NCBI GenBank assembly: GCA_963824305.1
Contig: CAWGOW010000002.1
Span: 118,413-182,412 of the forward strand
Length of the DNA stretch: 64,000 nt
DNA from: an uncultured Alphaproteobacteria bacterium
GTDB taxonomy: Bacteria > Pseudomonadota > Alphaproteobacteria > Rhizobiales > Xanthobacteraceae
Direction: 5' to 3'
Positions 46,127 through 62,576 of the stretch are shown piece by piece. Position 1 is the stretch's first letter. Every line of letters begins with the position of its first letter. Under the pieces are notes generated by a model, which ran no database searches, had not been told where the DNA came from, and worked only from the letters and a program-made list of their open reading frames with translations. The position numbers and the translations under genes were made by a program.

Positions 46127-46179
46127 CCCGGAGAATCAAGTGCGCGCATTTTCAAACCATCCAAACCGCGGAGAGAACC

Positions 46180-46962
46180 ATGGCGTATGAAACGATCCTC
46201 ACCGAGGAAGATGGCCCGGCGTTCGTGATCACCTTCAATCGCCCGGAAAAGCGCAACGCACTCAGTCTGCAAACGATCGACGATGTGGCCGACGCCGTGC
46301 GGAAGGCCGCGGCGCTGACGGAGGTTCGGGCGATCATTTTCACTGGCGGCGACAAGGTGTTCTCGGCGGGCGCGGATCTGAACGAAGCGCTCAAGGTCAA
46401 GTCGGTGACGGACGGAGACGCCTTCTTCGGCCGTGCCAACCGCCTTCTCGAGTTGTTGGAAAGCGTCGACAAGCCGGTGCTGGCCGCGATCGAAGGCTTC
46501 TGCATGACCGGCGGCTGTGAACTGGCGCTAGCCTGCGACATCCGGATCGGCGCCAAGGGCTCATCCTACGCGATCACTAGTTCGCGCATCGGTACGGTGG
46601 CGGGCTTCGGCGGAACGCAACGCCTCCCGCGCATTGTCGGGATGTCGAACGCGATGGATATGTTGTTCCTTGGAGACCCGATCGACGCCCAGGAAGCGCA
46701 TCGCATCGGCCTGATCAACCGGCTGACCGAAAAGGGCGAAGCGCTGAAGGAAGCCAAGCGGCTGGTGTCGATCTACGAGAAGCGCGGGCCGCTCAGCCTT
46801 GCCTTTGCCAAGCGCGCGGTTCGGCGTGGAATGCAGATGGACCAGATATCGGCGATCGACCTCGAATTCTTCATGGTCAACACCATTTACGGAACCGAAG
46901 ACAAGCACGAAGGCATTGCCGCATTCCTCGAGAAGCGCGACGCCAAATTCAAGGGCCGATAG
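46180..46962 (+). CDS. Enoyl-CoA hydratase/isomerase
   Basis: 260 aa crotonase fold (ITFNRPEKRNAL, GGDKVFSAGADL, GFCMTGGCELALACD). It is an intact paralogue of the frameshifted gene at 38.1-38.9 kb. Confidence 0.88.
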   Translation: MAYETILTEEDGPAFVITFNRPEKRNALSLQTIDDVADAVRKAAALTEVRAIIFTGGDKVFSAGADLNEALKVKSVTDGDAFFGRANRLLELLESVDKPVLAAIEGFCMTGGCELALACDIRIGAKGSSYAITSSRIGTVAGFGGTQRLPRIVGMSNAMDMLFLGDPIDAQEAHRIGLINRLTEKGEALKEAKRLVSIYEKRGPLSLAFAKRAVRRGMQMDQISAIDLEFFMVNTIYGTEDKHEGIAAFLEKRDAKFKGR

Positions 46963-46979
46963 GCCGCAAGGGGCATCAA

Positions 46980-48173
46980 ATGAAGAGAGAGGACAATGGC
47001 GCGGCGCGCGGCGCGTTGGCTGGCATCAAGGTGGTCGATTTCAGCCGGATGCTGCCGGGGCCGTGGTGCACGCAGATGTTGGGTGACCTCGGCGCGGACG
47101 TGATCAAGGTCGAGCAGCCGGAAGTGGGCGATCTCGGCCGGCACAATCCGCCGAACTTCAAGCAGAACAGCGTCTATTTCACCACCGTCAACGGCAACAA
47201 GCGAGGGGTGGCGCTCGATCTGGCCAAAGCGACGGACCGCAAAAAGGCCCATGAACTGATCGCGGAGGCTGATGTTATCGTCGAATCCTATCGGCGCGAT
47301 GTGACGAAACGGCTCGAAATCGACTACGAGACTGCACGAAAGATCAATCCGCGCATCATCTATTGTTCGATTACCGGCTTCGGTCAGACCGGCCCATGGG
47401 CCGGCATTCCCGGTCACGACCTTGTCGTGCAATCGGTAACGGGGGTCATGGGGACGGGGCCTGAAGGCGAGTTGCCGCCGGTGCCCGGCTTTCAAGCCGG
47501 GGATTACGCCGGATCCGCCTATGCCGTCATGGCCATCCTGGCCGCGCTCTACCAACGGCGCGATACCGGAGAAGGCCGCTACCTCGATATCTCGATGTTC
47601 GACTGTCTGTTCAGCATGACCAACGTGATCGCGGGCCCTGCGCTGGCGCGGTTGGGAGGATTTCCCGTCACGACGGTGATGGAGCTCTATGGCGGCAATC
47701 CGCGCTACGCGACATATCCGACCAAGGACGGCAAAGCCGTCGCGGTCTCGTTGCTCGAAGTACGGATCTGGAATTCGTTCTGCAAGCTGATCGACCGTCC
47801 CGATCTGATTCATGCCGACGAAGGTCCGGAACACCGCCACACGGCGCACGGAGCCCGGGCCGCGCTGTATCGGGATGCGATCGGCCAGTTCTGCCTGTCC
47901 AAGGATCGGGACGAACTCGTGCGATGGATGGCGGAACGCAACGTGCCGATCCTGCCTGTTTATACCTCGGATGAGGCCGTCAACAGTGAGCATGTCGCGG
48001 CGCGGGGAATGGTCGAGTGGATCTCGCATCCGACAGAGGGACGCATTCCCACCATTGCCAATCCGTTGCATGCATCGGGTCTAACTAGGGAACGCTCGCC
48101 CGCGCCGAGTCTGGGACAGCACCAGGAAATCGTCGAGAGAGCGGCCGCCGCTTTTGCCATTGAAACCATTTAA
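46980..48173 (+). CDS. Family III CoA-transferase (CaiB/BaiF), single domain
   Basis: 397 aa (LAGIKVVDFSRMLPGPWCTQMLGDLGADVIKVE; Asp in GFQAGDYAGS). Confidence 0.85.
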   Translation: MKREDNGAARGALAGIKVVDFSRMLPGPWCTQMLGDLGADVIKVEQPEVGDLGRHNPPNFKQNSVYFTTVNGNKRGVALDLAKATDRKKAHELIAEADVIVESYRRDVTKRLEIDYETARKINPRIIYCSITGFGQTGPWAGIPGHDLVVQSVTGVMGTGPEGELPPVPGFQAGDYAGSAYAVMAILAALYQRRDTGEGRYLDISMFDCLFSMTNVIAGPALARLGGFPVTTVMELYGGNPRYATYPTKDGKAVAVSLLEVRIWNSFCKLIDRPDLIHADEGPEHRHTAHGARAALYRDAIGQFCLSKDRDELVRWMAERNVPILPVYTSDEAVNSEHVAARGMVEWISHPTEGRIPTIANPLHASGLTRERSPAPSLGQHQEIVERAAAAFAIETI

Positions 48174-48191
48174 GCATTTCGAGGACTCGTG

Positions 48192-49550
48192 ATGAGCGCA
48201 CTTCAGAACGTGACCAACGCCGATGCCATCGCCAATTTCGTCGCCGATGCCTCCTTTGAGAGATTGCCCAAGGATGTGCTTGAGGCGGCGCGGTTCTGCC
48301 TGGTGGACTGGTTCGGTGTTGCGATCGGTGCGGCCAACGAAGAGGCGATCAAGTCCATCAAGCGGGTTGTCAAAGGGTGGAACGCTGCTGGAAAGTCTCC
48401 CGTTCTGCTTGATGGAGAAACGACGCCGGCTGCTGCTGCGCTCGTCAACGGAACGATGGCGCATTGTCTGGACTTCGACGACACCCATGTGGGATCGATT
48501 GCACACTTGACCGGCCCGACCTGGGCCGCAGCATTTGCGGTGGGCACGCATATCGGTGCATCGCCGCGCGACATCGTTGCAGCGTTTGTGTCCGGATTCG
48601 AGGTTGGAGGCAGGCTGGGGTCCGGTGGACTTGGGGTCGCCATCAACGAACGAAATATCCATTCGACCGGCGTATTCGGATGCGTGGGCGCCGCGATCGC
48701 CGCCTCGATCCTGTATGGGTTGAATGCAGATCAGCTAAAAAACGCGATCGGGCTGGCTTCCACGCAGGCCGCCGGATTGACTGGATCGTTCGGCACGACC
48801 GCCAAGCCGTTCCATGCCGGAAAAGCTGCGTTCAATGGCATTCTTGCCGCCGAAATGGCGCGCGAAGGTTTCAATGCCGCAAAAGGGCTGATCGAGATCG
48901 ATGGCGGTCTTGCCGCCGCATTGGTCCAGGATCGGGCGGTCAAGGTTTCTCCGCTCGACTTCGCGGAAGGCTGGGAAATTACCCGCAATACCTTCAAGCC
49001 TTATGCGTCTTGCCTGTTGACGCATCCAGTCATCGACGCGGCACGCGAGCTGCACGAGCGCCGGAGTGGCCGCGAGATCCGGAAAGTCGACGTCCATGTC
49101 GATCCCTTGTGCATCCAGCTTGCCGGAATCTCCAATCCGCAGACGCCTTTTGAAGGGAAGTTCAGCGTCGCATTTTGCGCGGCGCTCGGGCTTGAAGGGA
49201 TCATTCCGTCGCAGACCGAATTCACCACCAGGACGCTGGGCAACAAGGCCATTCGGCACCTGGTCGACGTCGTCGAATTGTTGCCGACGGCAAAAATGGA
49301 AAAGACCGCTGCCACGGTCGAGATCGTTCTTTCGGACGGATCCAAGGAAAGGTGCCACGTGCCGCTGGCACGCGGCAATCCCGGCCGGCCGATGAACTGG
49401 TCTGACATGGAGCGCAAGTTCATCTCGCTTGTCGATCCCGTCATTCCCGGCAAGGGAAAGCAGCTCTTCGACGCCTTGAAGGCGTTCGACGCGTTACAGG
49501 ACCTGTCGCAAATAAATTCAGTTCTGACGGGAAAGGCAGCTCTTAACTAG
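48192..49550 (+). CDS. MmgE/PrpD-family protein (second copy)
   Basis: 452 aa with family blocks (HCLDFDDTH, IHSTGVFG, KPFHAGKAAFNG). ATG 48192 follows GAGGA. Confidence 0.8.
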   Translation: MSALQNVTNADAIANFVADASFERLPKDVLEAARFCLVDWFGVAIGAANEEAIKSIKRVVKGWNAAGKSPVLLDGETTPAAAALVNGTMAHCLDFDDTHVGSIAHLTGPTWAAAFAVGTHIGASPRDIVAAFVSGFEVGGRLGSGGLGVAINERNIHSTGVFGCVGAAIAASILYGLNADQLKNAIGLASTQAAGLTGSFGTTAKPFHAGKAAFNGILAAEMAREGFNAAKGLIEIDGGLAAALVQDRAVKVSPLDFAEGWEITRNTFKPYASCLLTHPVIDAARELHERRSGREIRKVDVHVDPLCIQLAGISNPQTPFEGKFSVAFCAALGLEGIIPSQTEFTTRTLGNKAIRHLVDVVELLPTAKMEKTAATVEIVLSDGSKERCHVPLARGNPGRPMNWSDMERKFISLVDPVIPGKGKQLFDALKAFDALQDLSQINSVLTGKAALN

Positions 49551-49626: not shown

Positions 49627-50328
49627 ATGACAGTTGGAGCCATGCGAAAGAAGCTTGAAAAGCCGTCTGCGAAAGAGCAGGGACAATCCAGCTCCCAGGC
49701 GGCTTATGCGTTGCTGATCGCTGAAATCGAAAGCGGCCGGCTCCAGCCGGGCAGCCGATTGCTGGAGGTTGAACTGGCCGAGCGGCTCGGCATCAGCCGG
49801 ACGCCGGTCCGGGAAGCGATCAAGCGTCTTGAGACCCAGGGCCTCGTCAGCCACGAGCCGAACCAGGGCGCGGTGATCACCAAACTCGATCATGCGCGGA
49901 CCGTCGAACTCTACATCGTCCGGGAAGTGCTAGAAGGCGTCGCCGCACGGCAGGCGGCAACTTCCGCGACAGCGCAAGAACTGGAAATTATTCGCCAGAC
50001 GATGGACGAGGATTGGAAATACGTCGACCGCCATGAGAAGCTCGTCATTCGCGACCGGCTGTTTCACAAGCAAATTCAGCTCACGGCACGAAATCGTTTC
50101 CTGGACGATATCCTCAATAACATGCGGATTTCGCAGATCCTTATGACGGGCACGACGCTTGCCGTGAAAGCGCGCCCTACCGCTCTTCTGGAAGAGCATC
50201 AGGCGATCGTGGATGCAATTTTGGCCCGCGATGCCGACAAGGCCGAAGCCGCTGCCCGGTATCACGTACGGCAGGCATTTGCCACCCGGCTGCGGCTGTA
50301 TGCCGACGCGCAACGCGACGGGATATAA
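49627..50328 (+). CDS. GntR-family transcriptional regulator (FadR/FCD subfamily)
   Basis: wHTH (LLEVELAERLGISRTPVREAIKRLETQGLV) plus a C-terminal all-helical FCD-like domain. Confidence 0.85.
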   Translation: MTVGAMRKKLEKPSAKEQGQSSSQAAYALLIAEIESGRLQPGSRLLEVELAERLGISRTPVREAIKRLETQGLVSHEPNQGAVITKLDHARTVELYIVREVLEGVAARQAATSATAQELEIIRQTMDEDWKYVDRHEKLVIRDRLFHKQIQLTARNRFLDDILNNMRISQILMTGTTLAVKARPTALLEEHQAIVDAILARDADKAEAAARYHVRQAFATRLRLYADAQRDGI

Positions 50329-50397
50329 ATCTTTTGGTACGGAGAGGTTTCCGCCTCTCGTCATTGACGAATGTTCCGATGATGAACAGCGACGAGT

Positions 50398-50522
50398 GGA
50401 GTCAGCCCGCAGGCTCACAACGAAAAAGCCACTGGGATTTACTTCGCGACTGATAAGGTTTTCGGTCTTTCCTTGTCAGATGTCGCAACCGCCAAGTTTT
50501 TGGCAAAACCTTATCAGTTGGC
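50398..50522. repeat. Second locus of the CTGATAAGG hairpin-repeat family (mosaic of forward and inverted copies)
   Basis: GGAGTCAG at 50398-50405. A hairpin forms between CGCGACTGATAAGG (50445-50458) and CCTTGTCAGATGTCGC (50471-50486). A small hairpin GCCAA-GTTT-TTGGC lies at 50491-50504. An inverted copy AACCTTATCAGTTGGC lies at 50507-50522. All of this sits in a 530-nt non-coding gap. Confidence 0.8.
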
Positions 50523-50752
50523 CGTTTGTGAAGTCTTGAGTAATCGGTTTGAGGGCGCTCCGCCTCCGTGGACATTGTTGAAGACTTCCCTGGGGCAGGA
50601 GCCGTCCAAGGTCGCGGTGCTTGAGCCGATAGCGACCTGACGGATAAAGGCTGCGGGTCGGTAAGGCTCCGAAGCCGCTTGCATTCGCTTATCGGTGACC
50701 ATGTTGACAAGCGACTCAGCAACGAAACCCGATTGACGGCGGGTGGCGGGAC

Positions 50753-50794
50753 TTGACTTGCCCCGGCACATTAGTCTACTTATGCAAGTAACAA
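50753..50794 (+). promoter_or_regulatory. Candidate promoter/operator: TTGACT-N14-AGTCTACTTATGCAAGTAACAA (contains the dyad TACTT-N4-AAGTA)
   Basis: This AT-rich 22-mer lies about 65 nt upstream of the crotonase start. It is 19/22 identical to copy 2 at 59618-59639 and has the same upstream TTGACT hexamer. Confidence 0.6.
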
Positions 50795-50858
50795 ATTGGG
50801 CTGCGACTGTCCGTCGAAACGCCCGAGAATTCATCGGCTGGGCGCCAAAGAGGTCGCG

Positions 50859-51632
50859 TTGGAGGAAATTCGAATCGATCGGCGCGGCAGCGTTGCCCAC
50901 GTCATTCTGGATCGGCCAGCCGTAAAGAATGCCGTGACGCACGCGATGTGGCGCGAATTGGCCGCGATCTTCGCTGGCTTCGCTGGCGATAAAGATGTCC
51001 GAGGGGTGGTCCTCAGGGGGGCGGGTAAAGACTTTTCTGTCGGCGCCGACATTTCCGAATTCGAAAAGATCAGAGACGACAAGCACCAGAGCGCGGCTTA
51101 CGAAGTTGCGGTCGACGCTTGCTCTGGGGCGATCGCCGCGCTTGGAAAGCCAGTCGTAGCGGCTATTTCCGCCTATTGTCTCGGCGGCGGCTGCCACCTC
51201 GCGCTCGCGTGCGATTTCCGCTTCGGTGATCGCAGCGCGACGATGGGCATTCCTTCGGCAAAGCTATCCATCGTGTACGGGGTTCATAGTGTGCAGCGCC
51301 TGTTGGCGATCACGGGCGTATCGAACGCGAAGCGCATTCTCTACTCGGCCGACAGTTATTCTGCCGAGCAGGCTAACTCGATGGGTCTGATCGACGAATT
51401 GCACCAAGACGCGAGCTTGGCCGCTGAGGTGTTTCTAGAGCGGCTGGGGGTAAACGCGCCTCTCTCGATTTCCGGCGCCAAATACATGCTGAACGGCCTT
51501 TCGATGGGAGCTGGCGCGCTCGATCTGGCGGCTGCGCAGCGGCTCATCGATGCCGCCTCCGACAGCGCCGATTTCAAGGAAGGCCGACGGGCGTTTGCTG
51601 AGAAGCGGTCACCACGGTTTCGCGGCGAATAA
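50859..51632 (+). CDS. Enoyl-CoA hydratase/isomerase-family protein (possibly a hydrolase-type member)
   Basis: Crotonase blocks (HVILDRPAVKNAV, GAGKDFSVGADI, AYCLGGGCHLALACD). The probable start is TTG 50859, which has AGAGG 6 nt upstream. The longest ORF starts at TTG 50796. Confidence 0.8.
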   Translation: MEEIRIDRRGSVAHVILDRPAVKNAVTHAMWRELAAIFAGFAGDKDVRGVVLRGAGKDFSVGADISEFEKIRDDKHQSAAYEVAVDACSGAIAALGKPVVAAISAYCLGGGCHLALACDFRFGDRSATMGIPSAKLSIVYGVHSVQRLLAITGVSNAKRILYSADSYSAEQANSMGLIDELHQDASLAAEVFLERLGVNAPLSISGAKYMLNGLSMGAGALDLAAAQRLIDAASDSADFKEGRRAFAEKRSPRFRGE

Positions 51633-51654
51633 GCACCAATTTTGGAGGGCACCG

Positions 51655-52515
51655 ATGAAGCCTGCCAAGTTCGACTATGTTTCGCCGTCGACGATAGGTG
51701 CTGCCATTGAGGCGCTGGTCGCGTCGAACGGTGAGGGTAAGGTGCTGGCCGGAGGGCAAAGTCTGCTGCCGCTCCTAAACTTCCGGATGGCTCGGCCTGC
51801 CGTGCTGGTCGATCTGAATCGCATCGAGGGATTGTCGTACATAGAGGATCGCGGCGACCGTATCGCCATCGGCGCTCTGACGCGCCATCGCGACCTCGAG
51901 CACTCGGCCTTGATCGCCGCAAAGCTGCCCGTGATGTCGGCGGCCATGCGCCATGTCGCGCATCTTGCGATCCGCAATCGCGGCACCATCGGCGGCAGTT
52001 TGTCCCACGCGGATCCGGCAGCCGAACTTCCTATGCTCGCGACTTTCTATGAGGCGGCGATCATCGTGCAGGGCCCGAAGGGCCGTCGAACGATCGCGCC
52101 GGGAGAATTCTTTGTCGACGCGCTGACGAACTGCTTGGAGCCGGAAGAGATCGTGGTGGAAATCGAATTTCCGTTCCTGAAGCAGGACGGTTGGGCGTTC
52201 GAGGAAGTGGCGCGCCGCTTTGGCGACTTTGCGCTTGCGTGCATCGCCATCTCTATTCGCCGCGGTGCGTCCGGAATGGAGGCCGCGCGTGTCGCGGTGA
52301 TGGGGGTAGCGGATACGCCGTTGCGTCTGAGGCAGGTCGAGCAGCAACTTGTCGCGATGGCGATCAACGGACAGACGCCCGATCGATTTTCGGAGATTGT
52401 CGCCTCGCAAGTCTCCCCGAACGGAGACATTCACGGCTCAGCCGAATATCGCAGGCATCTCTTGACGCAACTCGCGAAGCGGGCGTTGCGGACGGCGTTG
52501 GCGATGAAAGGCTGA
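51655..52515 (+). CDS. Molybdenum hydroxylase FAD-binding (medium, CoxM-like) subunit
   Basis: Start at ATG 51655 with a GGAGGG SD. AGGQSLLPLLNFR FAD motif. 286 aa. Confidence 0.88.
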   Translation: MKPAKFDYVSPSTIGAAIEALVASNGEGKVLAGGQSLLPLLNFRMARPAVLVDLNRIEGLSYIEDRGDRIAIGALTRHRDLEHSALIAAKLPVMSAAMRHVAHLAIRNRGTIGGSLSHADPAAELPMLATFYEAAIIVQGPKGRRTIAPGEFFVDALTNCLEPEEIVVEIEFPFLKQDGWAFEEVARRFGDFALACIAISIRRGASGMEAARVAVMGVADTPLRLRQVEQQLVAMAINGQTPDRFSEIVASQVSPNGDIHGSAEYRRHLLTQLAKRALRTALAMKG

Positions 52516-52519
52516 TTCG

Positions 52520-53002
52520 ATGACCATCAAGGTATCCTTGACCGTTAATGGAGAGCCACACGACGTGGCTGCGGTCGAGCCGCGTCTGCTTCTGTCTGAC
52601 TTCCTGCGGGATACGCTCGGTCTTACGGGGACACATGTCGGATGCGAACACGGCGTATGCGGCGCCTGTACCGTCTTGATGAACGGCGACAGCGTGCGCT
52701 CCTGCTTGATGCTGGCCGTCCAGGCCAACGGCGCGGAGATCGTCACCGTCGAGGGGCTCGGTACGCCGGAACAGCTGAATGTGCTGCAGACCGAGTTCCG
52801 TGAGCACCATGGGCTTCAGTGCGGCTTCTGTACGCCGGGCATGCTGATGACAGGTGAGGATCTGCTTCGGAAGTATCCGCTTGCGACCGACGATGACATT
52901 CGGGAGGGCCTTTCTGGCAATCTCTGCCGTTGCACTGGATATCAAAACATCGTCGCGGCGATCAGAAGCGCGGCCGCCAAGCGCACGGAGAAGGCGCCAT
53001 GA
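52520..53002 (+). CDS. Molybdenum hydroxylase [2Fe-2S] (small, CoxS-like) subunit
   Basis: 160 aa with both cluster motifs ([12 protein letters not shown]; QCGFCTPGM...NLCRCTGY). Confidence 0.9.
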
Positions 53003-53760
53003 AACTCAATTTTCTTACAGCTGGCCGCCTTCGGATGAAGAAGAGCATCTACGTGGCCGGCGCCGATCGGACCGAAACCATCGACCTTCCCGTCAGCAGC
53101 GCATTGATCCGGCACAAGCAGGGCAATGTGCTGTTCGATACCGGCTGCCACCCCTCCGTGGTCGATAACGCCGAGGACCGCTGGGGGCCGCTTGCCAAGG
53201 TCATGAATCCGATCATGAACGCGGGCGAGACTTTGCTGCCAAGCCTCACATGCACCGGGCTTGAGCCGGACGACATCGACATTGTCGTGAACTCGCACTT
53301 CCATCCCGACCATTGCGGCTGCAACCAATTCTTCAGGAAGGCGACGATCCTCGCGCACACGAGGGAAATCGAAGCGGCAAACGCTCCGGGTGCCGAAAAT
53401 GCGGGCTATCTTAGGGCCGACTGGAATACCGGACAGGGTATCGAGGCCGTAGCCGGAGAGAGGGATCTGTTCGGCGATTCCAGCGTCGTGCTGTTGCCGT
53501 TGCCGGGTCACACGCCTGGAACACTCGGTGCGCTGGTCGGCCTGGATCGTGACGGTCAGTTCTTGCTTGCTTCCGACTCGGTGAGTCTTCGACAGAACCT
53601 AGATGCCGACGCAGCGCCTCGAAACACCTGGAACGTCGACCAGCAGCTGAAGACCTTCGATGAAGTCAGGCGTATCGAGAGGGGAGGCGCTACCGTGATT
53701 TGCGGCCATGACGACCAGCAATGGCGGGTCTTGCGCAAGGGAAGCGAAGGCTATGAGTAG
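52999..53760 (+). CDS. Metallo-beta-lactamase-fold lactonase (AttM/AiiB-type N-acyl-homoserine-lactonase family)
   Basis: Start at ATG 52999, overlapping the coxS stop (ATGA). SHFHPDHCG (HxHxDH), PGHTPG, ASD and CGHD metal ligands. 253 aa. Its stop lies 5 nt after the coxL start. Confidence 0.8.
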   Translation: MKLNFLTAGRLRMKKSIYVAGADRTETIDLPVSSALIRHKQGNVLFDTGCHPSVVDNAEDRWGPLAKVMNPIMNAGETLLPSLTCTGLEPDDIDIVVNSHFHPDHCGCNQFFRKATILAHTREIEAANAPGAENAGYLRADWNTGQGIEAVAGERDLFGDSSVVLLPLPGHTPGTLGALVGLDRDGQFLLASDSVSLRQNLDADAAPRNTWNVDQQLKTFDEVRRIERGGATVICGHDDQQWRVLRKGSEGYE

Positions 53761-56155
53761 CGATCGGATCGCTCATCCATCCGATGTGTTGCGGCCGCGG
53801 AACGTCGGCGCGCCCATCAAGCGCACGGAGGACCCGCGCCTTCTGACCGGCAACGGCGAGTACACGGCCGACCGCAACCCCGACCGAGCGCTGCATCTCG
53901 CCTTCCTTCGTAGCGGTCAGCCTCACGCCCGCATCAAACGGATCGACACCGCGGCGGCGCTGGCTGCGCCAGGCGTGCTCGCCGTGCTTACGGCCGAGGA
54001 TATCGCGGGAGACTTTCAACCCGTGATCCCGTTCTCACGGATGGCGAACTACTATGCGACGCCGATCGTGCCGCTTGCCTCCAGGAAGGTTCGCTATGTC
54101 GGCGAGGCGGTCGCGGCCGTCGTCGCGACGTCTCGCTACCTAGCAGAGGACGCGCTGGAGCTCATTGAAGTCGAATACGAATCTCTCGGCGCTGTCTCGC
54201 GCGCGGAGTTAGCCGTCGCGGACGATGCACCGCTCCTGCACGAAGAAGCCGGCACCAACGTCCTGATCGCGCGCGAATTCAAGAAGGGGGACGTCGCCGC
54301 AGACTTGAAGGCCGCGGCGGTCAGGGTAGGCGGGCGTTTCGAAATGACCCGCAAGGCGCCGCTTGCGATGGAGCCGCGAAGCTACGCTGCGGAATACGAA
54401 AAGCGCCGCGATGCGATCACTCTCTACACCTCGTCGAACATTCCCGGAATCGTCCGTGACGCCATTTCAGAGTCGCTCGGCCTGCCGGGCCATCGTCTCC
54501 GCGTCGTAGCTCCAGACGTCGGTGGAAGCTTCGGTTCGAAGGGTTCTCTCTACCCTGAAGAGTTGCTGATTTGCATCGCGGCGCGCAAGCTTCGCCGGTC
54601 GGTGAAGTGGACGGCGGACCGGCTTGAGGACGTCAGCAGCAGCAGCCAGGCATTCGGCGAAATCGTCGATGCGGAAATGGGGTTCGACGCGAACGGTATC
54701 GCAACCTCGCTGCAGGCCGATGTTATCGGGGACGTCGGAGCTTATTCGATCTATCCCTGGACTTGCGGACTTGAACCGGTTCAGGTCGTGAGCTTCCTGC
54801 CAGGGCCCTACAAGATCCGGTCGTATCGGGGCGCGGTGCGTGGTGTCGCGACCTGCAAGCCGCCGACCGGTCCGTATCGTGGCGTTGGCCGACCCATTTC
54901 GACCTTCGTTGCCGAGCGTCTGATGGACCTCGGCGCCAAGGCCCTCGGCATCGATCCTCTAGAGATCAGACGCCGCAATCTGGTCCGCGCCGAAGAGTTT
55001 CCGTATCGGATCGCTTCCGGGATTATCTGGGACAAGACCGGATTCGTCGAATGCCTCGACGCCGCCGCGAAAGCCGTCGGCTATGAGCAGCTTCGCAAAG
55101 AACAAGCCGAAGCGCGCAAGCAGGGGCGGCTGTTCGGCGTCGGCATCGCTACCTACGCCGAATTGACCGGCATCGGTTCGAGGATTGCGGTGGCGCCGGG
55201 CATGCCGATCAATACCGGCTCGGAGACGGCAAAGATCACGATCAACTCGACGGGTGCGATCACTGCCGCTTTCGGAGTCGCCTCTCACGGTCAAGGCCTC
55301 GAGACGACGTTGGCCCAGATCGTGGCCGATGATCTCGGCGCCCGGTTCGAGGATGTGCGCGTTATCCAGGGCGACAGCGACCAGGTGCCGATGTCGACCG
55401 GAACCTACGCGAGCCGTAGCGCAGTTCTGGGCGGCGGTGCGGCGAAGCACGCCTCGACGATATTGCAGGCGAAGATCAAGCAAGTCGCGTCGCATCTTCT
55501 CGAGGCCAATGCGGCCGACATCGAAGTGACCGATGGCAAGGCCACCGTACTCGGAACGGACCGCACCGTGAATTTCAAGCAGATCGCCAAGGCCGTCTAC
55601 GCCGACATGAAGACCTTACCAATGGACGCTCGCGAGGAGTTGAGCGCGACCTACACCTACGATCCGATCAACGGGACAACCGCGGCGGCCACCCACATCG
55701 CGGCAGTGGAGGTCGACCCGGTTAGCTGCTTCGTGCGGATCCTGAAATTTGTCGTCGCCGAAGACTGCGGCCGGATCATCAACCCGATGATCGTCGACGG
55801 TCAGGTGCACGGTGGTGTGGCGCAAGGCATCGGCGCTGCTCTGCTGGAGGAACTGATCTACGACGAGGATGGCCAACTCCTGACCGCGAGCCTCGTCGAC
55901 TACCTGATCCCTTCCGCCCCCGAGGTGCCGCTGATGGATGTCGTGCATATCGAGAGCGAGTCCGCGGTCGCCGGCGGCTTTCGGGGAATGGGCGAGGGCG
56001 GCACGATCGGCGCGCCGGCTGCAATTGCGAACGCGATCGCCGATGCGTTGTCGCCGCTCGACATCGATGTCTCGATTCTTCCGATGACGCCGGAGCGCAT
56101 CTTCAAATTGATGGAACAAGCCAGATTAAAATCAAGAGGAAAAGTAGATGAGTGA
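53753..56155 (+). CDS. Molybdopterin-binding large subunit of a xanthine dehydrogenase/CoxL-family hydroxylase (not a form-I CO dehydrogenase)
   Basis: Start at ATG 53753 (MSSDRIAHPSDVLRPRNVGAPIKRTEDPRLLTG). 800 aa. The loop reads GPYRGVGRP rather than the VAYRCSFR of CODH. The catalytic Glu context FRGMGEGGTIGAP is present. Confidence 0.88.
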   Translation: MSSDRIAHPSDVLRPRNVGAPIKRTEDPRLLTGNGEYTADRNPDRALHLAFLRSGQPHARIKRIDTAAALAAPGVLAVLTAEDIAGDFQPVIPFSRMANYYATPIVPLASRKVRYVGEAVAAVVATSRYLAEDALELIEVEYESLGAVSRAELAVADDAPLLHEEAGTNVLIAREFKKGDVAADLKAAAVRVGGRFEMTRKAPLAMEPRSYAAEYEKRRDAITLYTSSNIPGIVRDAISESLGLPGHRLRVVAPDVGGSFGSKGSLYPEELLICIAARKLRRSVKWTADRLEDVSSSSQAFGEIVDAEMGFDANGIATSLQADVIGDVGAYSIYPWTCGLEPVQVVSFLPGPYKIRSYRGAVRGVATCKPPTGPYRGVGRPISTFVAERLMDLGAKALGIDPLEIRRRNLVRAEEFPYRIASGIIWDKTGFVECLDAAAKAVGYEQLRKEQAEARKQGRLFGVGIATYAELTGIGSRIAVAPGMPINTGSETAKITINSTGAITAAFGVASHGQGLETTLAQIVADDLGARFEDVRVIQGDSDQVPMSTGTYASRSAVLGGGAAKHASTILQAKIKQVASHLLEANAADIEVTDGKATVLGTDRTVNFKQIAKAVYADMKTLPMDAREELSATYTYDPINGTTAAATHIAAVEVDPVSCFVRILKFVVAEDCGRIINPMIVDGQVHGGVAQGIGAALLEELIYDEDGQLLTASLVDYLIPSAPEVPLMDVVHIESESAVAGGFRGMGEGGTIGAPAAIANAIADALSPLDIDVSILPMTPERIFKLMEQARLKSRGKVDE

Positions 56156-56897
56156 CTTGAAAGGACGCGTGGCCCTCGTGACCGGGGGCGGCCGGGACGT
56201 GGGCGCGGGCATCTCCAAGATGCTTGCGAAGCATGGTGCAAGCATTGCCGTCAATTATCACAGTTCAAAGGCCGAGGCGGAAGCTGTCGTTGCCGAGATC
56301 CAAAAGGCGGGCGGCAACGCGAAGGCCTACCAAGCCGACATCGCGGATGCGGACATCGTCAGGAAGATGATCGCGGACATCAAGAACGATTTTGGCAGAC
56401 TGGACATCCTCATCAACAACGCCGGCTTGGTATTGCGCAAGCGTTTCAGCGAGAGCACGCCCGAGGACTGGAAAAAGCAGATCGACACTTGCCTTTACGG
56501 TGCGCTGAACTGTTCTCATAGCGCAGGTCCATTACTCGAGGCGTCGGGCCACGGACGTATCATCTCGATCATGGGCGACTCCTCCAGGGTCGGTGAATCC
56601 GGGCTGGCGCTTGGAGCCGCGGCGCGCGCGGGCACTATCGCGCTGATGAAGTCGTTGGCACGTGAATGGGGTCGTTCGGGCGTGACTGCAAACTCGATCT
56701 CGCTTGGTCTTATCGAGACGGCGCACGACAAGTCCTGGGTCGACGCGAACCGCGAAAAGCTGGTCAAGGCTTACGCGATTCGCCGGCTCGGGCTGCCGTC
56801 CGACGTGGCGCCGCTGGTTACATTGCTCGCGTCGGATGCGGGTGGCTGGATCACCGGGCAGGTGATCAGCATCAATGGTGGATACAGTATGGTCTAG
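56148..56897 (+). CDS. SDR-family oxidoreductase (FabG-like)
   Basis: TGGGRDVG cofactor motif. 249 aa. Its start overlaps the coxL end by 8 nt. Confidence 0.85.
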   Translation: MSDLKGRVALVTGGGRDVGAGISKMLAKHGASIAVNYHSSKAEAEAVVAEIQKAGGNAKAYQADIADADIVRKMIADIKNDFGRLDILINNAGLVLRKRFSESTPEDWKKQIDTCLYGALNCSHSAGPLLEASGHGRIISIMGDSSRVGESGLALGAAARAGTIALMKSLAREWGRSGVTANSISLGLIETAHDKSWVDANREKLVKAYAIRRLGLPSDVAPLVTLLASDAGGWITGQVISINGGYSMV

Positions 56898-56909
56898 GGG
56901 AATACGGCG

Positions 56910-58451
56910 ATGATGGACGTTGATTTGATCGCTCCAATTGCGCTGCTGATGAATCGGCACCTGAAGAACCGGCCCGAGCAGATCGCTTACTCGGATTCGG
57001 TCAGTTCCGTAACGTACAAGCAGCTGGCGGACAACACGGCGACCATCGCCTCCAACCTGGCAAAGGCGGGACTTCGCGAGGGCGACCGCGTCGCCCTCTA
57101 CCTGCCGAATAGTGTCGACTCGATCGAAGCGTGCTTTGCCGGGCTCAGGGCCGGGGCCGTGATCGTCCCGATAAGCTATGATGCGGCTGAAGGCGAGATC
57201 AGCTACCGGCTCACCGATGCCGATTGCAGCGTTATCGTCACGACCGCCGAAAGAAAAGAATTGGTGACGAAGATCTCGCGGGTAGCCAATATTGCTCCAC
57301 GAATGATCTTCGCCGGCCATGGTGCAGAGCAAGCGGGCACGGCGCTGGCTAATCTGGCGGAGCATGCCGACACCAAGCCGCTCGATCCCGAGGATATCGA
57401 TCGCTCGTCCTTTGTCATTTACACATCGGGCACCACCGGACGCGCCAAGGGCGTGCTTCTTTCGATACGCGGTATGCTTTGGATAGCGGCTTCCTGTTGG
57501 GCTCCGATCTGCGGGCTTAGCGCAAAGGACGTCGTTCTCTCGCCGCTACCGTTGTTTCATTCGTATGGTCTCAATCTGTCAGTGCTCAGCGTTCTTGCGA
57601 TCGGCGCAAGCGAACACCTCATGGAGCGGTTCTCTCCACAGCTCGCTTTGGACCTGATGCAGTCGGGCAGATACACCATCTTCCCCGGCGTCCCGACCAT
57701 GTTTCACTATCTGCTGCATCGGGCGCAGGAGACCCGGGTCGAGCGGCTGGGCAATATCCGGCTTTGTATCTCAGCCGGCGCCATCATGCCGGCAACGTTG
57801 AACCGAGCCTTCGAGGAACGCTTCAAGACACCGTTGCTCGATGGATACGGCATCACCGAGACGTCCACCATGGTCACCATGAATTGGCTCAGCGGCACGC
57901 GGCCCAGCGGCTCGTGCGGATTGCCGGTGCCGGGGCTCGCGGTACGCATCGTCGATCCCAACACGCTCGAAGATGTTCCGATTGGTGGCGAGGGCGAACT
58001 GATCGTCCGCGGACCAAACCTCATGCAGGGCTATCATAACAAGCCGACGGAGACTGCGTCGGCGCTCCGCAAGGGGTGGTATCACACGGGAGATCTCGCC
58101 AAGTCGGACCCGGCCGGCTACCTGACCATCACGGGCCGGATCAAGGAACTGATCATCCGGGGCGGTCAGAACATCGCGCCTGCCGAGATCGAGGAAGTCG
58201 TCGTTCGGCATCCCCAGGTCAAGGACTGTGCGGTTGTCGGTGTGAAGCATGCGACGCTGGGGGAGGTGCCTTGCCTCTTCGTCGTCGCGAACGGAAATGA
58301 GTTGGATGTTTCGTCTCTGATGGATCATTGCAGGGCGCATTTGTCTGCCTACAAGATTCCGGAGGCGACCCATCTCGTCGGAGAAATTCCTCGTACCGGC
58401 TCCGGAAAGATCATGCGCTTCAAGCTGGCCGAAGCCTTGAGCAAATCGTGA
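56910..58451 (+). CDS. AMP-forming acyl-CoA synthetase/ligase (ANL superfamily)
   Basis: 513 aa with the AMP motif YTSGTTGRAKGV, plus GYGITETS, TGDLA and GKIMRFKL. Confidence 0.88.
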   Translation: MMDVDLIAPIALLMNRHLKNRPEQIAYSDSVSSVTYKQLADNTATIASNLAKAGLREGDRVALYLPNSVDSIEACFAGLRAGAVIVPISYDAAEGEISYRLTDADCSVIVTTAERKELVTKISRVANIAPRMIFAGHGAEQAGTALANLAEHADTKPLDPEDIDRSSFVIYTSGTTGRAKGVLLSIRGMLWIAASCWAPICGLSAKDVVLSPLPLFHSYGLNLSVLSVLAIGASEHLMERFSPQLALDLMQSGRYTIFPGVPTMFHYLLHRAQETRVERLGNIRLCISAGAIMPATLNRAFEERFKTPLLDGYGITETSTMVTMNWLSGTRPSGSCGLPVPGLAVRIVDPNTLEDVPIGGEGELIVRGPNLMQGYHNKPTETASALRKGWYHTGDLAKSDPAGYLTITGRIKELIIRGGQNIAPAEIEEVVVRHPQVKDCAVVGVKHATLGEVPCLFVVANGNELDVSSLMDHCRAHLSAYKIPEATHLVGEIPRTGSGKIMRFKLAEALSKS

Positions 58452-58459
58452 TTGGACGA

Positions 58460-59566
58460 TCAGTCGACCGAACGCGGCCCCAAGGCGCCGAACGATTCCG
58501 GATCGTAGGTCAGCCGATAGCGCATGTCCGCGGCGACGATCGGCTGTTTGCAGCGATCGCAGTTCACCGACGGTTGGAAATCGTGTCCACATTTGAGATG
58601 GGTGAGTATCAACGGAGGCTTGCCCTTGGAGAGCCAACGGTCGCCCCATTGCAGCATCGCGATGAAGGGGCCATAGAGGTCCAACCCCATGTCGGTGAGA
58701 AGATACTCGTACCGGTCCGGGGAACTTTGGTACTGCCTGCGATGAAAGACGCCGCTGGCAACCAGGCGATTGAGCCGATCGGTCAGGATGTTCGGCGCGA
58801 TCGCGAGTTCGGTCAGGATCTTGTCGTAGCGACGGTTGCCGAAAAAACCCTCGCGGACAACCATGAAGCTCCACTTGTCGCCGATGATTTCAAGCGCGCG
58901 CGAAACCGAACTTGGGCGGCCTTGCACGAACCGGCTGCCGTCGGAAGGACGCCTGGTGTTGCGGCCGGGTTTGGCAAGACATCGTCCGGCACCGGGGCCA
59001 TCGCGGTATTTGGCATCGCGGGCGCTGACAGCTTCGCCACAATCGGAGCAGGCGACGATGGGGTGGCTGTCGCAACCACAGACGCCGTGGATCAGCGTCA
59101 GCGGACGAGGCTTGTCCTTGAAGAGCCAGCGGTCTCCGAATTGCATCAGCGCGATGAAGCTCGGATAGAGATCAAATCCCATCTTCGTCAGGCGATATTC
59201 CTTGCGTCGCGAAGATCCGGGCGCGACCTGTCGGAAGATGGCGAGTTGGGTAAGCTTTCTGAGCCGATCGGTCAGGGTCGCCCGCGGAATGCCGAGCGCG
59301 GAGCGGAACGCTTCGAACGTTTGGGTGCCGAAGAACGCCTCGCGGATGATCAGGAATGCCCAGGCGTCGGAGACGATGTCCAGCGTGCGAGCGACCGAAC
59401 AATTGCGCTCGGTGCGGACGATGCCGGTTCGCCCCGCGGGCGCCACCGATCTTGGCTTCAGCGGGGATTTGGTCGTTTTTTTTATTTTGGCGGCGGCGGG
59501 CATCCCGACCTGTCCATTACGCGGCAGCCACGACGGCAGCCTTCGAAAGTCGCGCAGCTTTACCAC
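58460..59566 (-). CDS. Tandem-duplicated HxlR (DUF24)-type winged-helix regulator; each half carries a C-terminal His/Cys (H-x2-C...C-x2-C) module
   Basis: Half 1: CSVARTLDIVSDAWAFLIIRE...GDRWLFKDKPRPLTLIHGVCGCDSHPIVACSDCGEAV. Half 2: VSRALEIIGDKWSFMVVRE...GDRWLSKGKPPLILTHLKCGHDFQPSVNCDRCKQPI. The start is GTG 59566 or, more likely, ATG 59503. Confidence 0.75.
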   Translation of the reverse strand: MVKLRDFRRLPSWLPRNGQVGMPAAAKIKKTTKSPLKPRSVAPAGRTGIVRTERNCSVARTLDIVSDAWAFLIIREAFFGTQTFEAFRSALGIPRATLTDRLRKLTQLAIFRQVAPGSSRRKEYRLTKMGFDLYPSFIALMQFGDRWLFKDKPRPLTLIHGVCGCDSHPIVACSDCGEAVSARDAKYRDGPGAGRCLAKPGRNTRRPSDGSRFVQGRPSSVSRALEIIGDKWSFMVVREGFFGNRRYDKILTELAIAPNILTDRLNRLVASGVFHRRQYQSSPDRYEYLLTDMGLDLYGPFIAMLQWGDRWLSKGKPPLILTHLKCGHDFQPSVNCDRCKQPIVAADMRYRLTYDPESFGALGPRSVD

Positions 59567-59576
59567 AACGGTACGA

Positions 59577-59639
59577 TTGACTAGCCGGAAATATCAGTCT
59601 AGTTACGCATGTAAGTAAGTCTAGTTATGCTAGTAATAA
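59577..59639 (+). promoter_or_regulatory. Candidate promoter/operator: TTGACT-N13 followed by two tandem 22-bp direct repeats (AGTCTAGTTACGCATGTAAGTA / AGTCTAGTTATGCTAGTAATAA)
   Basis: Read directly in the HxlR/SBP divergent intergenic region. The repeats lie at 59596-59617 and 59618-59639 and are 17/22 identical. The same motif occurs at 50773-50794. Confidence 0.65.
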
Positions 59640-59680
59640 AAGCAAACTATTAGGCATAAAAACGTTTAGGGAGGAATGTC

Positions 59681-62543: not shown

Positions 62544-62576
62544 CAATCGGAACGCGTTCTCGCAACGGTGTGGCTT

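Follow-up and report, generated by a model that had tools for sequence, protein, structure and literature searches.

The window, by which we mean the whole 64,000-nucleotide stretch of DNA that was analysed, carries on its forward strand a gene for a predicted lactonase-family hydrolase of the metallo-β-lactamase (MBL) fold (positions 52999–53760, 253 amino acids, Pfam Lactamase_B), which is the feature under study. Read from the sequence, the gene starts with the ATG at 52999 and ends with the TAG at 53758–53760. It lies between the genes for the small (S) and large (L) subunits of a molybdenum hydroxylase and overlaps both, exactly as the first-pass annotation had placed it: the S stop codon (TGA, 53000–53002) shares an ATGA with the MBL start, and the L start codon (ATG at 53753, ATGAGTAG) results in an 8-nt overlap with the end of the MBL gene. 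A second in-frame ATG for L is found upstream at 53708; the start equivalent to 53753 is the choice of all annotated and aligned L orthologues. The MBL and L starts are each preceded by a purine-rich, Shine–Dalgarno-like stretch (GGAGAAGG and GGGAAGCGAAGG). The MBL reading frame matches Lactamase_B with E = 3e-21, has 2282 homologues at E ≤ 1e-10 and is a real, intact gene, with a GC3 of 0.728 next to 0.727 for S and 0.755 for L. The junction between L and the following short-chain dehydrogenase/reductase (SDR) gene (56148 versus 56155) shows an 8-nt overlap too, as at MBL/L, and so the tight coupling is operon-wide and not peculiar to the lactonase. The overlaps had been taken to mean that the lactonase is produced stoichiometrically with the hydroxylase subunits; this is not implied by start/stop overlaps that are found at L/SDR as well, and gene overlaps alone demonstrate neither stoichiometric production nor a complex. 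A promoter and terminator scan of positions 50200–63300 gave match counts no better than chance.

The flanking genes encode a three-subunit hydroxylase of the xanthine dehydrogenase/CO dehydrogenase family, with all the expected domains above threshold and all on the forward strand: the FAD-binding medium subunit M (51655–52515; FAD_binding_5 and CO_deh_flav_C), the [2Fe-2S] small subunit S (52520–53002; Fer2_2 and Fer2) and the 800 amino acid molybdopterin-binding large subunit L (53753–56155; Ald_Xan_dh_C, MoCoBD_1 and MoCoBD_2). The M start (ATG 51655) has a GGAGGG upstream and gives a length that agrees with the orthologues. A CoxG-family (SRPBCC) accessory protein for such hydroxylases is encoded at 62568–63017 on the same strand (Pfam COXG, E = 1e-35). 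The first-pass annotation used the names coxS and coxL for the genes on both sides of the lactonase, yet these are xanthine-dehydrogenase-family subunits and CO dehydrogenase identity is rejected. L scores below both CoxL models (480 bits versus 991 for TIGR02416 and 596 versus 950 for NF040766), and a regular-expression search of L found no AY-x4-R, the pattern that we take as shorthand for the CO dehydrogenase active-site loop (AYxCSFR or AYRGAGR). A GMGEGG stretch close to the L C-terminal presumably lies at the position of the family's catalytic Glu. The closest solved relative of L is quinoline 2-oxidoreductase (1T3Q, 556 bits). This QorMSL system shares the M-S-L order and the hydroxylation beside the ring heteroatom, from which an oxo tautomer results; it takes an N-heterocycle in free form, and the lactam that it yields is stable and is not known to be hydrolysed in a following step. 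In the comparison clusters that we examined (e.g., L087, L006 and L046), M, S and L are contiguous and the S-L gap is empty, unlike in the window.

Downstream of the SDR gene (56148–56897, forward strand, Pfam adh_short_C2) lies the gene for an AMP-forming acyl-CoA ligase (56910–58451, forward strand, Pfam AMP-binding), followed on the reverse strand by a tandem HxlR-type winged-helix regulator with two HxlR stretches (58460–59566), whose orthologues (48–57% identity) adjoin the cluster in most loci. Next, again on the forward strand, is a periplasmic substrate-binding protein of a branched-chain-amino-acid-type ABC transporter (59681–60907, Pfam Peripla_BP_6), which is 63–85% identical in orthologous clusters. 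The closest solved relatives are feruloyl-CoA and malonyl-CoA synthetases for the ligase and uncharacterised Burkholderia proteins for the binding protein, and neither gives a substrate clue. The gene at 60987–62543 (forward strand) appears as 'HpaB' in Pfam but is predicted to encode a 4-hydroxybutyryl-CoA dehydratase / vinylacetyl-CoA isomerase and not an HpaB monooxygenase: it scores 802 bits against PDB 6VJR, which we take to be the Nitrosopumilus maritimus 4-hydroxybutyryl-CoA dehydratase, 591 against 1U8V (AbfD of Clostridium aminobutyricum) and only 126 against a true HpaB. These two enzymes work in an archaeal CO2-fixation cycle and in GABA fermentation, whereas the window gene is part of a cluster for aerobic catabolism that includes a molybdenum hydroxylase. 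This suggests an aerobic catabolic role for 4-hydroxybutyryl-CoA dehydratase, which, if true, would be a new one. The dehydratase gene is present in five loci (the window, L001, L007, L009 and L020) and a module of thioesterase, Fe-alcohol dehydrogenase (Fe-ADH) and succinate-semialdehyde dehydrogenase (SSADH) in seven, while both together are found in none, so that the two appear to be alternatives. The pattern tracks lineage, and the split may reflect just a few independent events. From Aminobacter, the SSADH passes TIGR01780 and the Fe-ADH resembles generic group III alcohol dehydrogenases among the solved structures, with no clue to its substrate.

Upstream of M is a gene for a crotonase-fold protein (50859–51632, forward strand, Pfam ECH_1, E = 3e-45), whose start is uncertain (TTG 50859 or TTG 50796). 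Orthologues from seven loci (47–76% identity) show that in all seven the GGGCE motif is changed to GGGC-H (His or Asn) and the second Glu to Ala or Ser. We take the hydratase glutamates to be those of the GGGxE and PE motifs, E144 and E164 in the rat enzyme. The protein is thus probably a hydrolase or of the decarboxylase type, and not an enoyl-CoA hydratase; its matches among solved structures are uncharacterised structural-genomics entries without a substrate clue. Plain β-oxidation by ligase, dehydratase, crotonase and 3-hydroxyacyl-CoA dehydrogenase was considered for this cluster and rejected, because the crotonase-fold protein has neither hydratase glutamate and the ligase is accompanied by a thioesterase in sister clusters. 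The gene is also missing from two Xanthobacteraceae loci (L008 and L009), which weakens any scheme that requires its product.

Analysis of the MBL protein places it in the metallo-β-lactamase superfamily (PF00753, 76.6 bits against a cut-off of 22.7), and it matches solved N-acyl-homoserine lactonases over its full length (E = 5e-30). The metal ligands H100, H102, D104, H105, H171, D193 and H237 are all intact and show little or no variation among the aligned sequences. The best NCBIfam models are AttM (NF045700), AhlS, AiiA and 4-pyridoxolactonase, but all are missed by far, with 131.3, 109.1, 105.8 and 104.2 bits against curated cut-offs of 390, 475, 375 and 325. The column that holds a Tyr in the solved lactonases is Ser196 in MBL (D193-S-V-S196 versus D-a-a-Y in 9KHO). 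This conserved Tyr, three residues past the bridging Asp, is presumably Tyr194 of AiiA (D-A-S-Y). In the MBL orthogroup and its nearest relatives the column holds S, P, L, A or V, while the Tyr is kept in remoter relatives. Since the Tyr is substituted throughout the clade, the MBL chemistry may depart from classical lactone hydrolysis. Calling the protein 'AttM-type', as had been done, is overly specific for an enzyme that reaches about a third of the AttM cut-off and has a Ser for the lactonase Tyr. Its likeness to AttM/AiiB of Agrobacterium lies in the MBL fold, the HxHxDH...H...D...H motif and the rank of AttM as top curated family, and the Fe-ADH and SSADH of the sister clusters resemble attL and attK; besides the score and the Ser, it differs in its location within an operon that encodes a molybdenum hydroxylase and a CoA ligase. 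A tblastn search of the plasmid collection found no attKLM-type copies at E ≤ 1e-20. The nearest outgroup MBLs (~41 and 32% identity; L021 and L041) form attKLM-like pairs with adjoining genes for SSADH and Fe-ADH, which suggests that the MBL descends from γ-butyrolactonases.

The databases name the MBL orthologues 'N-acyl homoserine lactonase family protein' and the top family matches are AHL lactonases, so one may ask whether this is a generic quorum-quenching enzyme that came to lie in the operon by chance. We find this extremely improbable, as the three AHL-lactonase models are far missed (131 versus 390, 109 versus 475 and 106 versus 375 bits), the conserved Tyr is missing, and the position and junctions of the gene are kept across bacterial classes along with the catabolic genes. 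The database label is probably misleading for these genes.

MBL genes inside comparable operons are indeed found elsewhere. Both junctions are kept in 14 loci, with ATGA or TGATG at S/MBL and ATGAnTGA or ATGA at MBL/L, from Bradyrhizobium, Aminobacter, Agrobacterium, Sinorhizobium, Novosphingobium, Paraburkholderia and several metagenome-assembled genomes (MAGs). The S-MBL-L order thus spans the Hyphomicrobiales, Sphingomonadales and Burkholderiales (Betaproteobacteria), and the MBL-L pairing reaches a Rokubacteria MAG; the taxonomic range is at least this wide, as the pattern used in the genome scan (HLHxDH[AC]GxN) misses the HFHPDH variant of Bradyrhizobium. A recent, unrelated insertion, which would have spoken against a link to the hydroxylase, does not fit these data: with a composition like that of its neighbours and with junctions kept in 14 loci, the MBL gene is neither a recent nor a chance insertion. 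Identities to Bradyrhizobium, Aminobacter and Agrobacterium are 87, 58 and 53% for MBL, 86, 69 and 63% for S and 88, 62 and 62% for L, so the three diverge at a similar rate. In Agrobacterium and Sinorhizobium M-S-MBL-L forms a separate four-gene operon, with the other genes in a divergent operon; the functional tie between lactonase and hydroxylase that had been proposed is supported by an S-MBL-L order that outlasts this rearrangement. In the plasmid collection, L subunits that reach at least 60% identity occur in 19 records (the next are at 41% or less), and the lactonase is present in every inspected cluster of this group. At E ≤ 1e-20 (tblastn), MBL matches 56 plasmid records, and in each of them molybdenum hydroxylase subunit genes or their remnants lie alongside. 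MBL relatives that do not exceed 41% identity are without such neighbours, except in L046, where M-S-L genes lie ~1.8 kb from the MBL relative on the opposite strand; the association is therefore specific to this orthogroup. To our mind the chances are about even that the lactonase belongs, as an integral and long-conserved enzyme, to an as yet uncharacterised catabolic cluster.

Another question raised by this arrangement is whether MBL is a bound fourth subunit or a maturation factor of the hydroxylase, or else an MBL-type thioesterase that releases CoA. MBL-fold thioesterases of the glyoxalase II type exist, and the gene does sit among the subunit genes. There is also an in-frame S::MBL fusion (P0086/L088), yet this sole Rosetta-stone fusion comes from a single 1.5-kb soil contig, arose through a 50-nt deletion and carries little weight. 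The complete dinuclear-metal motif and the full-length similarity to lactonases favour lactonase-type catalysis, and a thioesterase would be unwelcome where the dehydratase needs a CoA ester. Moreover, MBL is kept in an Afipia MAG that has crotonase-fold (ECH), MBL, SDR and ligase genes without M, S and L (the MBL reading frame is broken there), and in L006 and L007 its neighbour is another M-S-L paralogue. We therefore hold both the fourth-subunit and the thioesterase role to be highly unlikely. Together with one MAG in which MBL is found by itself, the Afipia case means that MBL is not strictly bound to the hydroxylase. The gene in tightest linkage to MBL across the variants is the SDR (53–90% identity in orthologous loci), which adjoins it even in L006, L007 and L023.

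Which reaction does the lactonase perform? Ring opening of a hydroxylated heterocycle is the best functional guess, since the conserved gene order ties the lactonase to the molybdenum hydroxylase. This part of the first-pass annotation stands, whereas its more specific proposal, that the substrate is the lactone of the 2-furoate (Trudgill) pathway, is not supported by the comparison with hmf genes, for which we used hmfABCDE of Dinoroseobacter shibae (pDSHI01, locus L086), a species confirmed to degrade furfural. The enzyme families agree: in the systems of D. shibae and Cupriavidus basilensis HMF14, as in the window, an acyl-CoA ligase and a three-subunit xanthine-dehydrogenase-family hydroxylase are accompanied by a CoxG module, a crotonase-fold protein and a branched-chain-type ABC transporter, and the hmf chemistry yields a lactone tautomer that needs opening. 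The earlier statement that this opening has no assigned enzyme is right; a review describes it as 'spontaneous or catalysed' (PMC3223595). MBL could thus be the missing 5-oxo-dihydrofuroyl-CoA lactone hydrolase, but we judge this very unlikely. Identities to D. shibae are 35% for L, 35% for M, 59% for S, 29% for the ligase (HmfD) and 31% for the crotonase-fold protein (HmfE), while HmfA homologues of confirmed furfural degraders share no less than 54% identity with HmfA of C. basilensis (PMC3223595), so that L falls short of HmfA orthology. The order is ECH-M-S-MBL-L-SDR-ligase in the window and L-M-S-ligase-ECH in D. shibae, whose CoxG domain is fused to the HmfA C-terminal whereas the window CoxG is a separate gene. 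No lactonase is found in the D. shibae hmf cluster, and hmf is likewise without SDR, 4-hydroxybutyryl-CoA dehydratase and SSADH. HmfE keeps both catalytic glutamates and the window protein neither. The eight hmf genes are enough in Pseudomonas putida S12, and Bradyrhizobium japonicum and Rhodopseudomonas palustris are counted as furfural degraders through their hmfABCDE homologues. Finally, the hmf end product is 2-oxoglutarate, which leaves the dehydratase, SSADH and SDR unexplained, whereas the window genes point to 4-hydroxybutyryl-CoA or succinate semialdehyde. On this comparison the cluster is best described as a sibling of the hmf (2-furoyl-CoA) system that is not orthologous to it.

A mechanism that fits these data is an hmf-like, CoA-dependent pathway for an O-heterocyclic carboxylate, in which the lactonase opens the hydroxylated lactone on the way to 4-hydroxybutyryl-CoA; we would give it roughly even odds. 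The comparisons above show the family-level gene identities, the conserved architecture, the non-orthology to hmf and the assignment of the dehydratase and SSADH; from these we infer the order of steps, the hydroxylase product as MBL substrate and the C4 end point, although gene order cannot settle reaction order. The ABC transporter would import a small heterocyclic carboxylate, most likely of the furan type, and the AMP-forming ligase would form its CoA thioester. The M-S-L hydroxylase, with CoxG, would then put a water-derived hydroxyl on the ring carbon beside the heteroatom, and the enol product would tautomerise to an (enol-)lactone, a cyclic ester that MBL would open. The SDR could reduce the aldehyde or keto group so released, while the Glu-less crotonase-fold protein may contribute a reaction other than hydration, perhaps a decarboxylation or some thioester chemistry, to give 4-hydroxybutyryl-CoA or 4-oxobutyryl-CoA. 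In the Bradyrhizobium/Xanthobacteraceae type the dehydratase would lead on to crotonyl-CoA; in the Aminobacter/Agrobacterium/Paraburkholderia/Afipia type thioesterase, Fe-ADH and SSADH would lead to succinate. We know of no MBL lactonase that works on a CoA-bound lactone.

One possible option is that the lactonase works ahead of the hydroxylase or independently of it. The pathway substrate would be a lactone from the start or turn into a γ-butyrolactone-like compound, which the lactonase would open to a 4-hydroxy or 4-oxo acid for the ligase, followed by SDR and dehydratase, and the molybdenum enzyme would be an aldehyde or lactol oxidoreductase or would act on a free, non-CoA heterocycle, for example a furan or furanone. 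The order M-S-MBL-L-SDR-ligase-dehydratase would suit such reactions, the outgroup MBLs lie in attKLM-like pairs with SSADH and Fe-ADH (L021 and L041), and the Afipia variant has MBL, SDR and ligase without a hydroxylase. An SDR with an MBL lactonase is also a known lactol-dehydrogenase/lactonase pairing, as in pyridoxal 4-dehydrogenase and 4-pyridoxolactonase of Mesorhizobium loti, whose models both window proteins match, although weakly (154 and 104 bits against cut-offs of 325) and in a system that has neither a CoA ester nor a molybdenum enzyme. However, a ligase acting on 4-hydroxybutyrate would create a futile CoA cycle in clusters with thioesterase, Fe-ADH and SSADH, the crotonase-fold protein cannot serve as the crotonase that would be needed, and the dedicated ABC uptake and the hmf parallel favour a carboxylate that is activated first. 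Such a lactonase-first order, together with either role for the molybdenum enzyme, is in our opinion rather unlikely.

Within the preferred CoA-dependent pathway, furan-3-carboxylate would employ every enzyme: hydroxylation at C2 would give an α-acyl butenolide and its opening (2-oxoethyl)malonyl-CoA, from which reduction and decarboxylation would lead to 4-hydroxybutyryl-CoA. The fit exists on paper only and we regard this particular substrate as quite improbable. A more general form would be aerobic breakdown of some furan-type carboxylate, 2-furoate excepted, in which a dedicated MBL that acts on or docks to the molybdenum hydroxylase opens the CoA-bound hydroxylation product and the exit is through 4-hydroxybutyryl-CoA dehydratase; as a combined claim this seems unlikely to us. 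Thiophene-2-carboxylate, pyrrole carboxylates and N-heterocycles were considered as well and are disfavoured, as genes for handling amines or sulfur are missing from the cluster, whose end point is a 4-hydroxy or 4-oxo C4 compound.

We found no publication on this cluster in the literature on furoyl-CoA dehydrogenase, heterocycle carboxylates and 4-hydroxybutyryl-CoA dehydratase. The genes describe a widespread, apparently unstudied catabolic module of plant-associated and soil Proteobacteria, in which a molybdenum hydroxylase is predicted to be coupled with a hydrolase dedicated to ring opening. Such a hydrolase would also give an experimental handle on a step of the furoate pathway that has been open since 1969, the opening of the hydroxylated furoyl-CoA lactone tautomer. 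Carriers of the module include plasmids of Bradyrhizobium, Agrobacterium, Sinorhizobium and Aminobacter, as well as a contig of Paraburkholderia sediminicola.

The 253-codon reading frame at 52999-53760 (plus strand; ATG at 52999, TAG at 53758-53760) matches the Pfam family Lactamase_B (E = 3e-21) and, over its full length, the solved N-acyl-homoserine lactonases (E = 5e-30), and has 2282 homologues in the database at E <= 1e-10. Its GC3 (0.728) is indistinguishable from those of both neighbours, the 2Fe-2S subunit gene S (52520-53002, plus strand, TGA stop at 53000-53002; 0.727) and the molybdopterin subunit gene L (53753-56155, plus strand, ATG at 53753; 0.755), and it is a genuine gene, here called MBL for its metallo-beta-lactamase fold. 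The ATGA overlap of S with MBL and the 8-nt overlap of MBL with L (ATGAGTAG), both described in the first-pass annotation, read exactly so in the sequence. A second in-frame ATG for L lies at 53708; annotated and aligned orthologues start at the equivalent of 53753.

These genes are part of a tight plus-strand operon of seven genes, delimited by reading-frame junctions, that runs from a crotonase-fold protein (ECH, 50859-51632) through the FAD subunit gene M (51655-52515), S, MBL, L and a short-chain dehydrogenase/reductase (SDR, 56148-56897) to an AMP-forming acyl-CoA ligase (56910-58451). Since L and SDR also overlap by 8 nt, tight coupling is a property of the whole operon and gives no evidence for the stoichiometric lactonase production that had been claimed, nor for a lactonase complex. 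The cox-type naming of the flanking genes also had to be given up: they encode subunits of the xanthine-dehydrogenase family, the CoxL models were missed widely, and the CODH-type loop pattern was not found in L. Beyond the operon follow a tandem-HxlR regulator in the opposite orientation (58460-59566), a branched-chain-type periplasmic binding protein (59681-60907), a gene labelled HpaB by Pfam (60987-62543) and a CoxG gene (62568-63017). Matches in a simple scan for promoters and terminators were about as numerous as expected by chance.

The association of MBL with the Mo hydroxylase is old and specific to one orthogroup. The operon is also found on four Bradyrhizobium elkanii plasmids (77% nucleotide identity), and a tblastn search with MBL against 72,556 plasmids gave 56 records at E <= 1e-20 (50-87% identity; Bradyrhizobium, Aminobacter, Sinorhizobium, Rhizobium and Agrobacterium), in all 56 of which MBL adjoins genes, or gene remnants, of the 2Fe-2S and/or Mo subunit. 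In Agrobacterium and Sinorhizobium, where the remaining genes of the pathway have moved to a divergent operon, M-S-MBL-L stands as an intact four-gene unit. Among the matches listed in a scan of GTDB species genomes, whose pattern misses the Bradyrhizobium motif variant, S-MBL-L was seen in Xanthobacteraceae MAGs, Novosphingobium, Paraburkholderia sediminicola and a betaproteobacterial MAG, and ligase-MBL-L-SDR in a Rokubacteria MAG. Both junctions are kept in 14 loci, the first as ATGA or TGATG and the second as ATGAnTGA or ATGA. With L as the tblastn query, 19 plasmid records were found at 60% identity or more and then none above 41%; MBL is present in every inspected cluster of this top group, and no orthologous operon without the insert, which had been named as possible counter-evidence, was seen among them. 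No Mo-hydroxylase genes adjoin the MBL relatives of 41% identity or less, except at one locus (L046), where M-S-L is encoded by the opposite strand at a distance of about 1.8 kb.

Judged from variant loci, MBL is a member of the pathway core along with the ligase and SDR, and it usually, though not obligatorily, sits among the hydroxylase genes. In two MAGs (L006 and L007) SDR-MBL lies beside a divergent, uninterrupted M-S-L of another subfamily (L 41% identical), in L007 with the 4-hydroxybutyryl-CoA dehydratase and the HxlR regulator also nearby. An Afipia sp. MAG (L023, 9219-14623) has Fe-alcohol dehydrogenase (Fe-ADH), thioesterase, ECH, MBL, SDR, ligase and succinate-semialdehyde dehydrogenase (SSADH) genes without M, S and L. 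This layout may be ancestral, may derive from a deletion or may reflect an error of assembly; its MBL is interrupted by one frameshift, near residue 125-140, that may come from the assembly. In a further MAG (L015) MBL is found by itself. A decayed remnant with truncated FAD and 2Fe-2S genes, no L and a full-length MBL (52% identity) is present on Rhizobium etli CFN42 p42d (L002, 32486-34320) and on about 37 further symbiotic plasmids of Rhizobium. One possible option is that the lactonase acts on a lactone that already exists, ahead of the hydroxylase or separately from it; the Afipia locus without hydroxylase genes would agree with this, and we consider it unlikely. The Rhizobium remnant is located on pSym plasmids of bean symbionts, near a type III polyketide synthase gene. 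The crotonase-fold gene is absent from two Xanthobacteraceae loci. A JGI soil metagenome contig (Ga0310811_10401550, 19-1209) encodes a 396-aa protein (P0086, locus L088) in which the 2Fe-2S subunit and MBL are fused in frame; it results from a 50-nt deletion across the S/MBL junction and lacks the first 14 MBL residues. This fusion, on a single 1.5-kb contig, may reflect natural variation or an artefact of assembly.

In MBL the dinuclear site has kept each of its seven metal ligands. That MBL is a subunit, a maturation factor or a thioesterase would suit its place between two subunit genes, and with this complete site it seems very improbable to us. The protein falls below every curated lactonase cut-off (AttM 131 against 390 bits, AhlS 109 against 475, AiiA 106 against 375, 4-pyridoxolactonase 104 against 325), so the term AttM-type used earlier is too specific. 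Ser196 occupies the column of the Tyr after the bridging Asp in characterised AHL lactonases (Tyr194 in AiiA numbering); the column is variable in the orthogroup and its nearest relatives, Tyr is retained in more distant ones, and the D-x-x-Y motif is present in 9KHO. The orthogroup is narrow: in a 50%-identity cluster library, which does not list the cluster of MBL itself, just two full-length representatives lie above 50% identity (55% and 52%), the next full-length matches drop to about 40%, and 74 clusters in total reach E <= 1e-30. The nearest outgroup genes (L021 and L041) adjoin SSADH and Fe-ADH genes in attKLM-like pairs, which suggests that MBL descended from gamma-butyrolactone-type lactonases. 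A hitch-hiking quorum-quenching enzyme would fit the public name of the gene, 'N-acyl homoserine lactonase family protein', and would sit badly with a position and junctions that are conserved alongside catabolic genes; we give this reading hardly any credence.

Among the closest known systems is the 2-furoyl-CoA (hmf) pathway, for which the pDSHI01 cluster of Dinoroseobacter shibae, a confirmed furfural degrader, served as reference. It contains a UbiX-family prenyltransferase, a LysR regulator, a UbiD-family decarboxylase and an aldehyde dehydrogenase, followed by L (983 aa), M, S, ligase, ECH and an ABC transporter; we take the UbiD/UbiX pair to be the furandicarboxylate decarboxylase genes hmfF/G. 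The window cluster and hmf have in common the ligase, L/M/S, CoxG, a crotonase-fold protein and the transporter type, whereas MBL, SDR and a different downstream module are additional in the window. The HmfA homologue of D. shibae (L086, 6968-9919) has a C-terminal CoxG-like domain (residues about 818-960) that shares 37-40% identity with the separate CoxG protein of the window cluster, and this fusion suggests a working role for CoxG within these CoA-ester hydroxylases. Gene order in hmfABCDE is highly conserved, confirmed degraders have at least 54% identity to HmfA, B. japonicum and R. palustris are among the furfural degraders identified through hmfABCDE homologues, and eight hmf genes are enough in P. 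putida S12 (PMC3223595). Lactone opening in hmf is possibly 'spontaneous or catalysed' (PMC3223595), and MBL could be the missing lactonase of the Trudgill furoate pathway, as the first-pass annotation proposed. Yet the D. shibae hmf cluster has no lactonase and identities to it are 35% for L, 35% for M, 59% for S, 29% for the ligase and 31% for ECH; we find this explanation quite improbable, and the window cluster is a sibling of the hmf system rather than the Trudgill furoate cluster itself.

The gene at 60987-62543 gives 802 bits with PDB 6VJR, which we take to be the 4-hydroxybutyryl-CoA dehydratase of the thaumarchaeon Nitrosopumilus, 591 bits with AbfD (1U8V) and just 126 bits with true HpaB; it is therefore predicted to encode a 4-hydroxybutyryl-CoA dehydratase, and its Pfam and public label, '4-hydroxyphenylacetate 3-hydroxylase', was rejected. 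Its closeness to 6VJR is striking, in a context that is apparently aerobic and catabolic. The dehydratase is present in the window, in B. elkanii and in three Xanthobacteraceae-type MAGs. The Aminobacter, Agrobacterium, Sinorhizobium, Paraburkholderia and Afipia clusters instead have a 4HBT hotdog thioesterase and an Fe-ADH, and SSADH is also found in those of Aminobacter (732 bits, over the TIGR01780 cut-off), Paraburkholderia and Afipia, where the fetched locus extends far enough. Two loci (L010 and L014) have only the thioesterase of this alternative module, and both modules together occur in no locus compared. Since both handle C4 acyl units with a 4-hydroxy or 4-oxo group, the probable node is 4-hydroxybutyryl-CoA or 4-oxobutyryl-CoA, not 2-oxoglutarate. 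At the two hydratase glutamate positions, both Glu in HmfE, the crotonase-fold protein carries His (or Asn) and Ala/Ser; with both replaced, we rejected its identity as a crotonase and a simple beta-oxidation reading of the cluster.

The mechanism that we consider most likely, with moderate confidence, is Mo hydroxylation of a CoA-activated O-heterocyclic carboxylate and lactone opening by MBL, with 4-hydroxybutyryl-CoA as product. A small O-heterocyclic carboxylate would be imported and activated to its CoA ester, which the Mo enzyme would hydroxylate beside the ring oxygen; the enol product would tautomerise to an (enol-)lactone, MBL would open it, SDR would reduce the carbonyl freed by the opening, and the Glu-less crotonase-fold protein would carry out some non-hydratase step. 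The 4-hydroxybutyryl-CoA ending these core steps would be dehydrated to crotonyl-CoA, or de-esterified and oxidised via succinate semialdehyde to succinate. With furan-3-carboxylate as the substrate every enzyme is used on paper; this is a paper exercise, and we regard that substrate as improbable. No publication on the cluster was found in the literature searched. It is best described as a candidate CoA-dependent Mo-hydroxylase pathway of the hmf kind that includes its own ring-opening hydrolase and leaves by way of 4-hydroxybutyryl-CoA; the conserved S-MBL-L architecture and the apparent aerobic catabolic use of the dehydratase are noteworthy and readily testable, not paradigm-changing.

At the start of the window (70-11075 and 12188-20183) a partial photosynthesis gene cluster is followed by a Calvin-cycle operon. 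The former has family matches to a CobN/Mg-chelatase large subunit, a NifH/frxC-family (BchL-like) protein, Mg-protoporphyrin methyltransferase, PucC, the reaction-centre H chain, a rubrerythrin-family protein (probably AcsF), DUF3623 and a class I/II aminotransferase-fold protein, possibly ALA synthase; the latter encodes FBPase, phosphoribulokinase, transketolase, class II aldolase, the RuBisCO large subunit and an AAA (CbbX-like) protein. From these, a phototrophic, Bradyrhizobium-like host is probable, in which the catabolic cluster probably lies on the chromosome, whereas it is plasmid-borne in B. elkanii. Three further stretches (24584-27216, 39948-42080 and 44972-49550) contain pairs of acyl-CoA dehydrogenase and MmgE/PrpD-family genes at two places, together with genes for family III CoA-transferases, one of which is 710 aa long and has two stretches of CoA_transf_3; upstream, a second binding protein of the Peripla_BP_6 family and an aldehyde dehydrogenase are also encoded. 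These genes are not conserved beside the cluster in B. elkanii, and they look like separate organic-acid CoA pathways.
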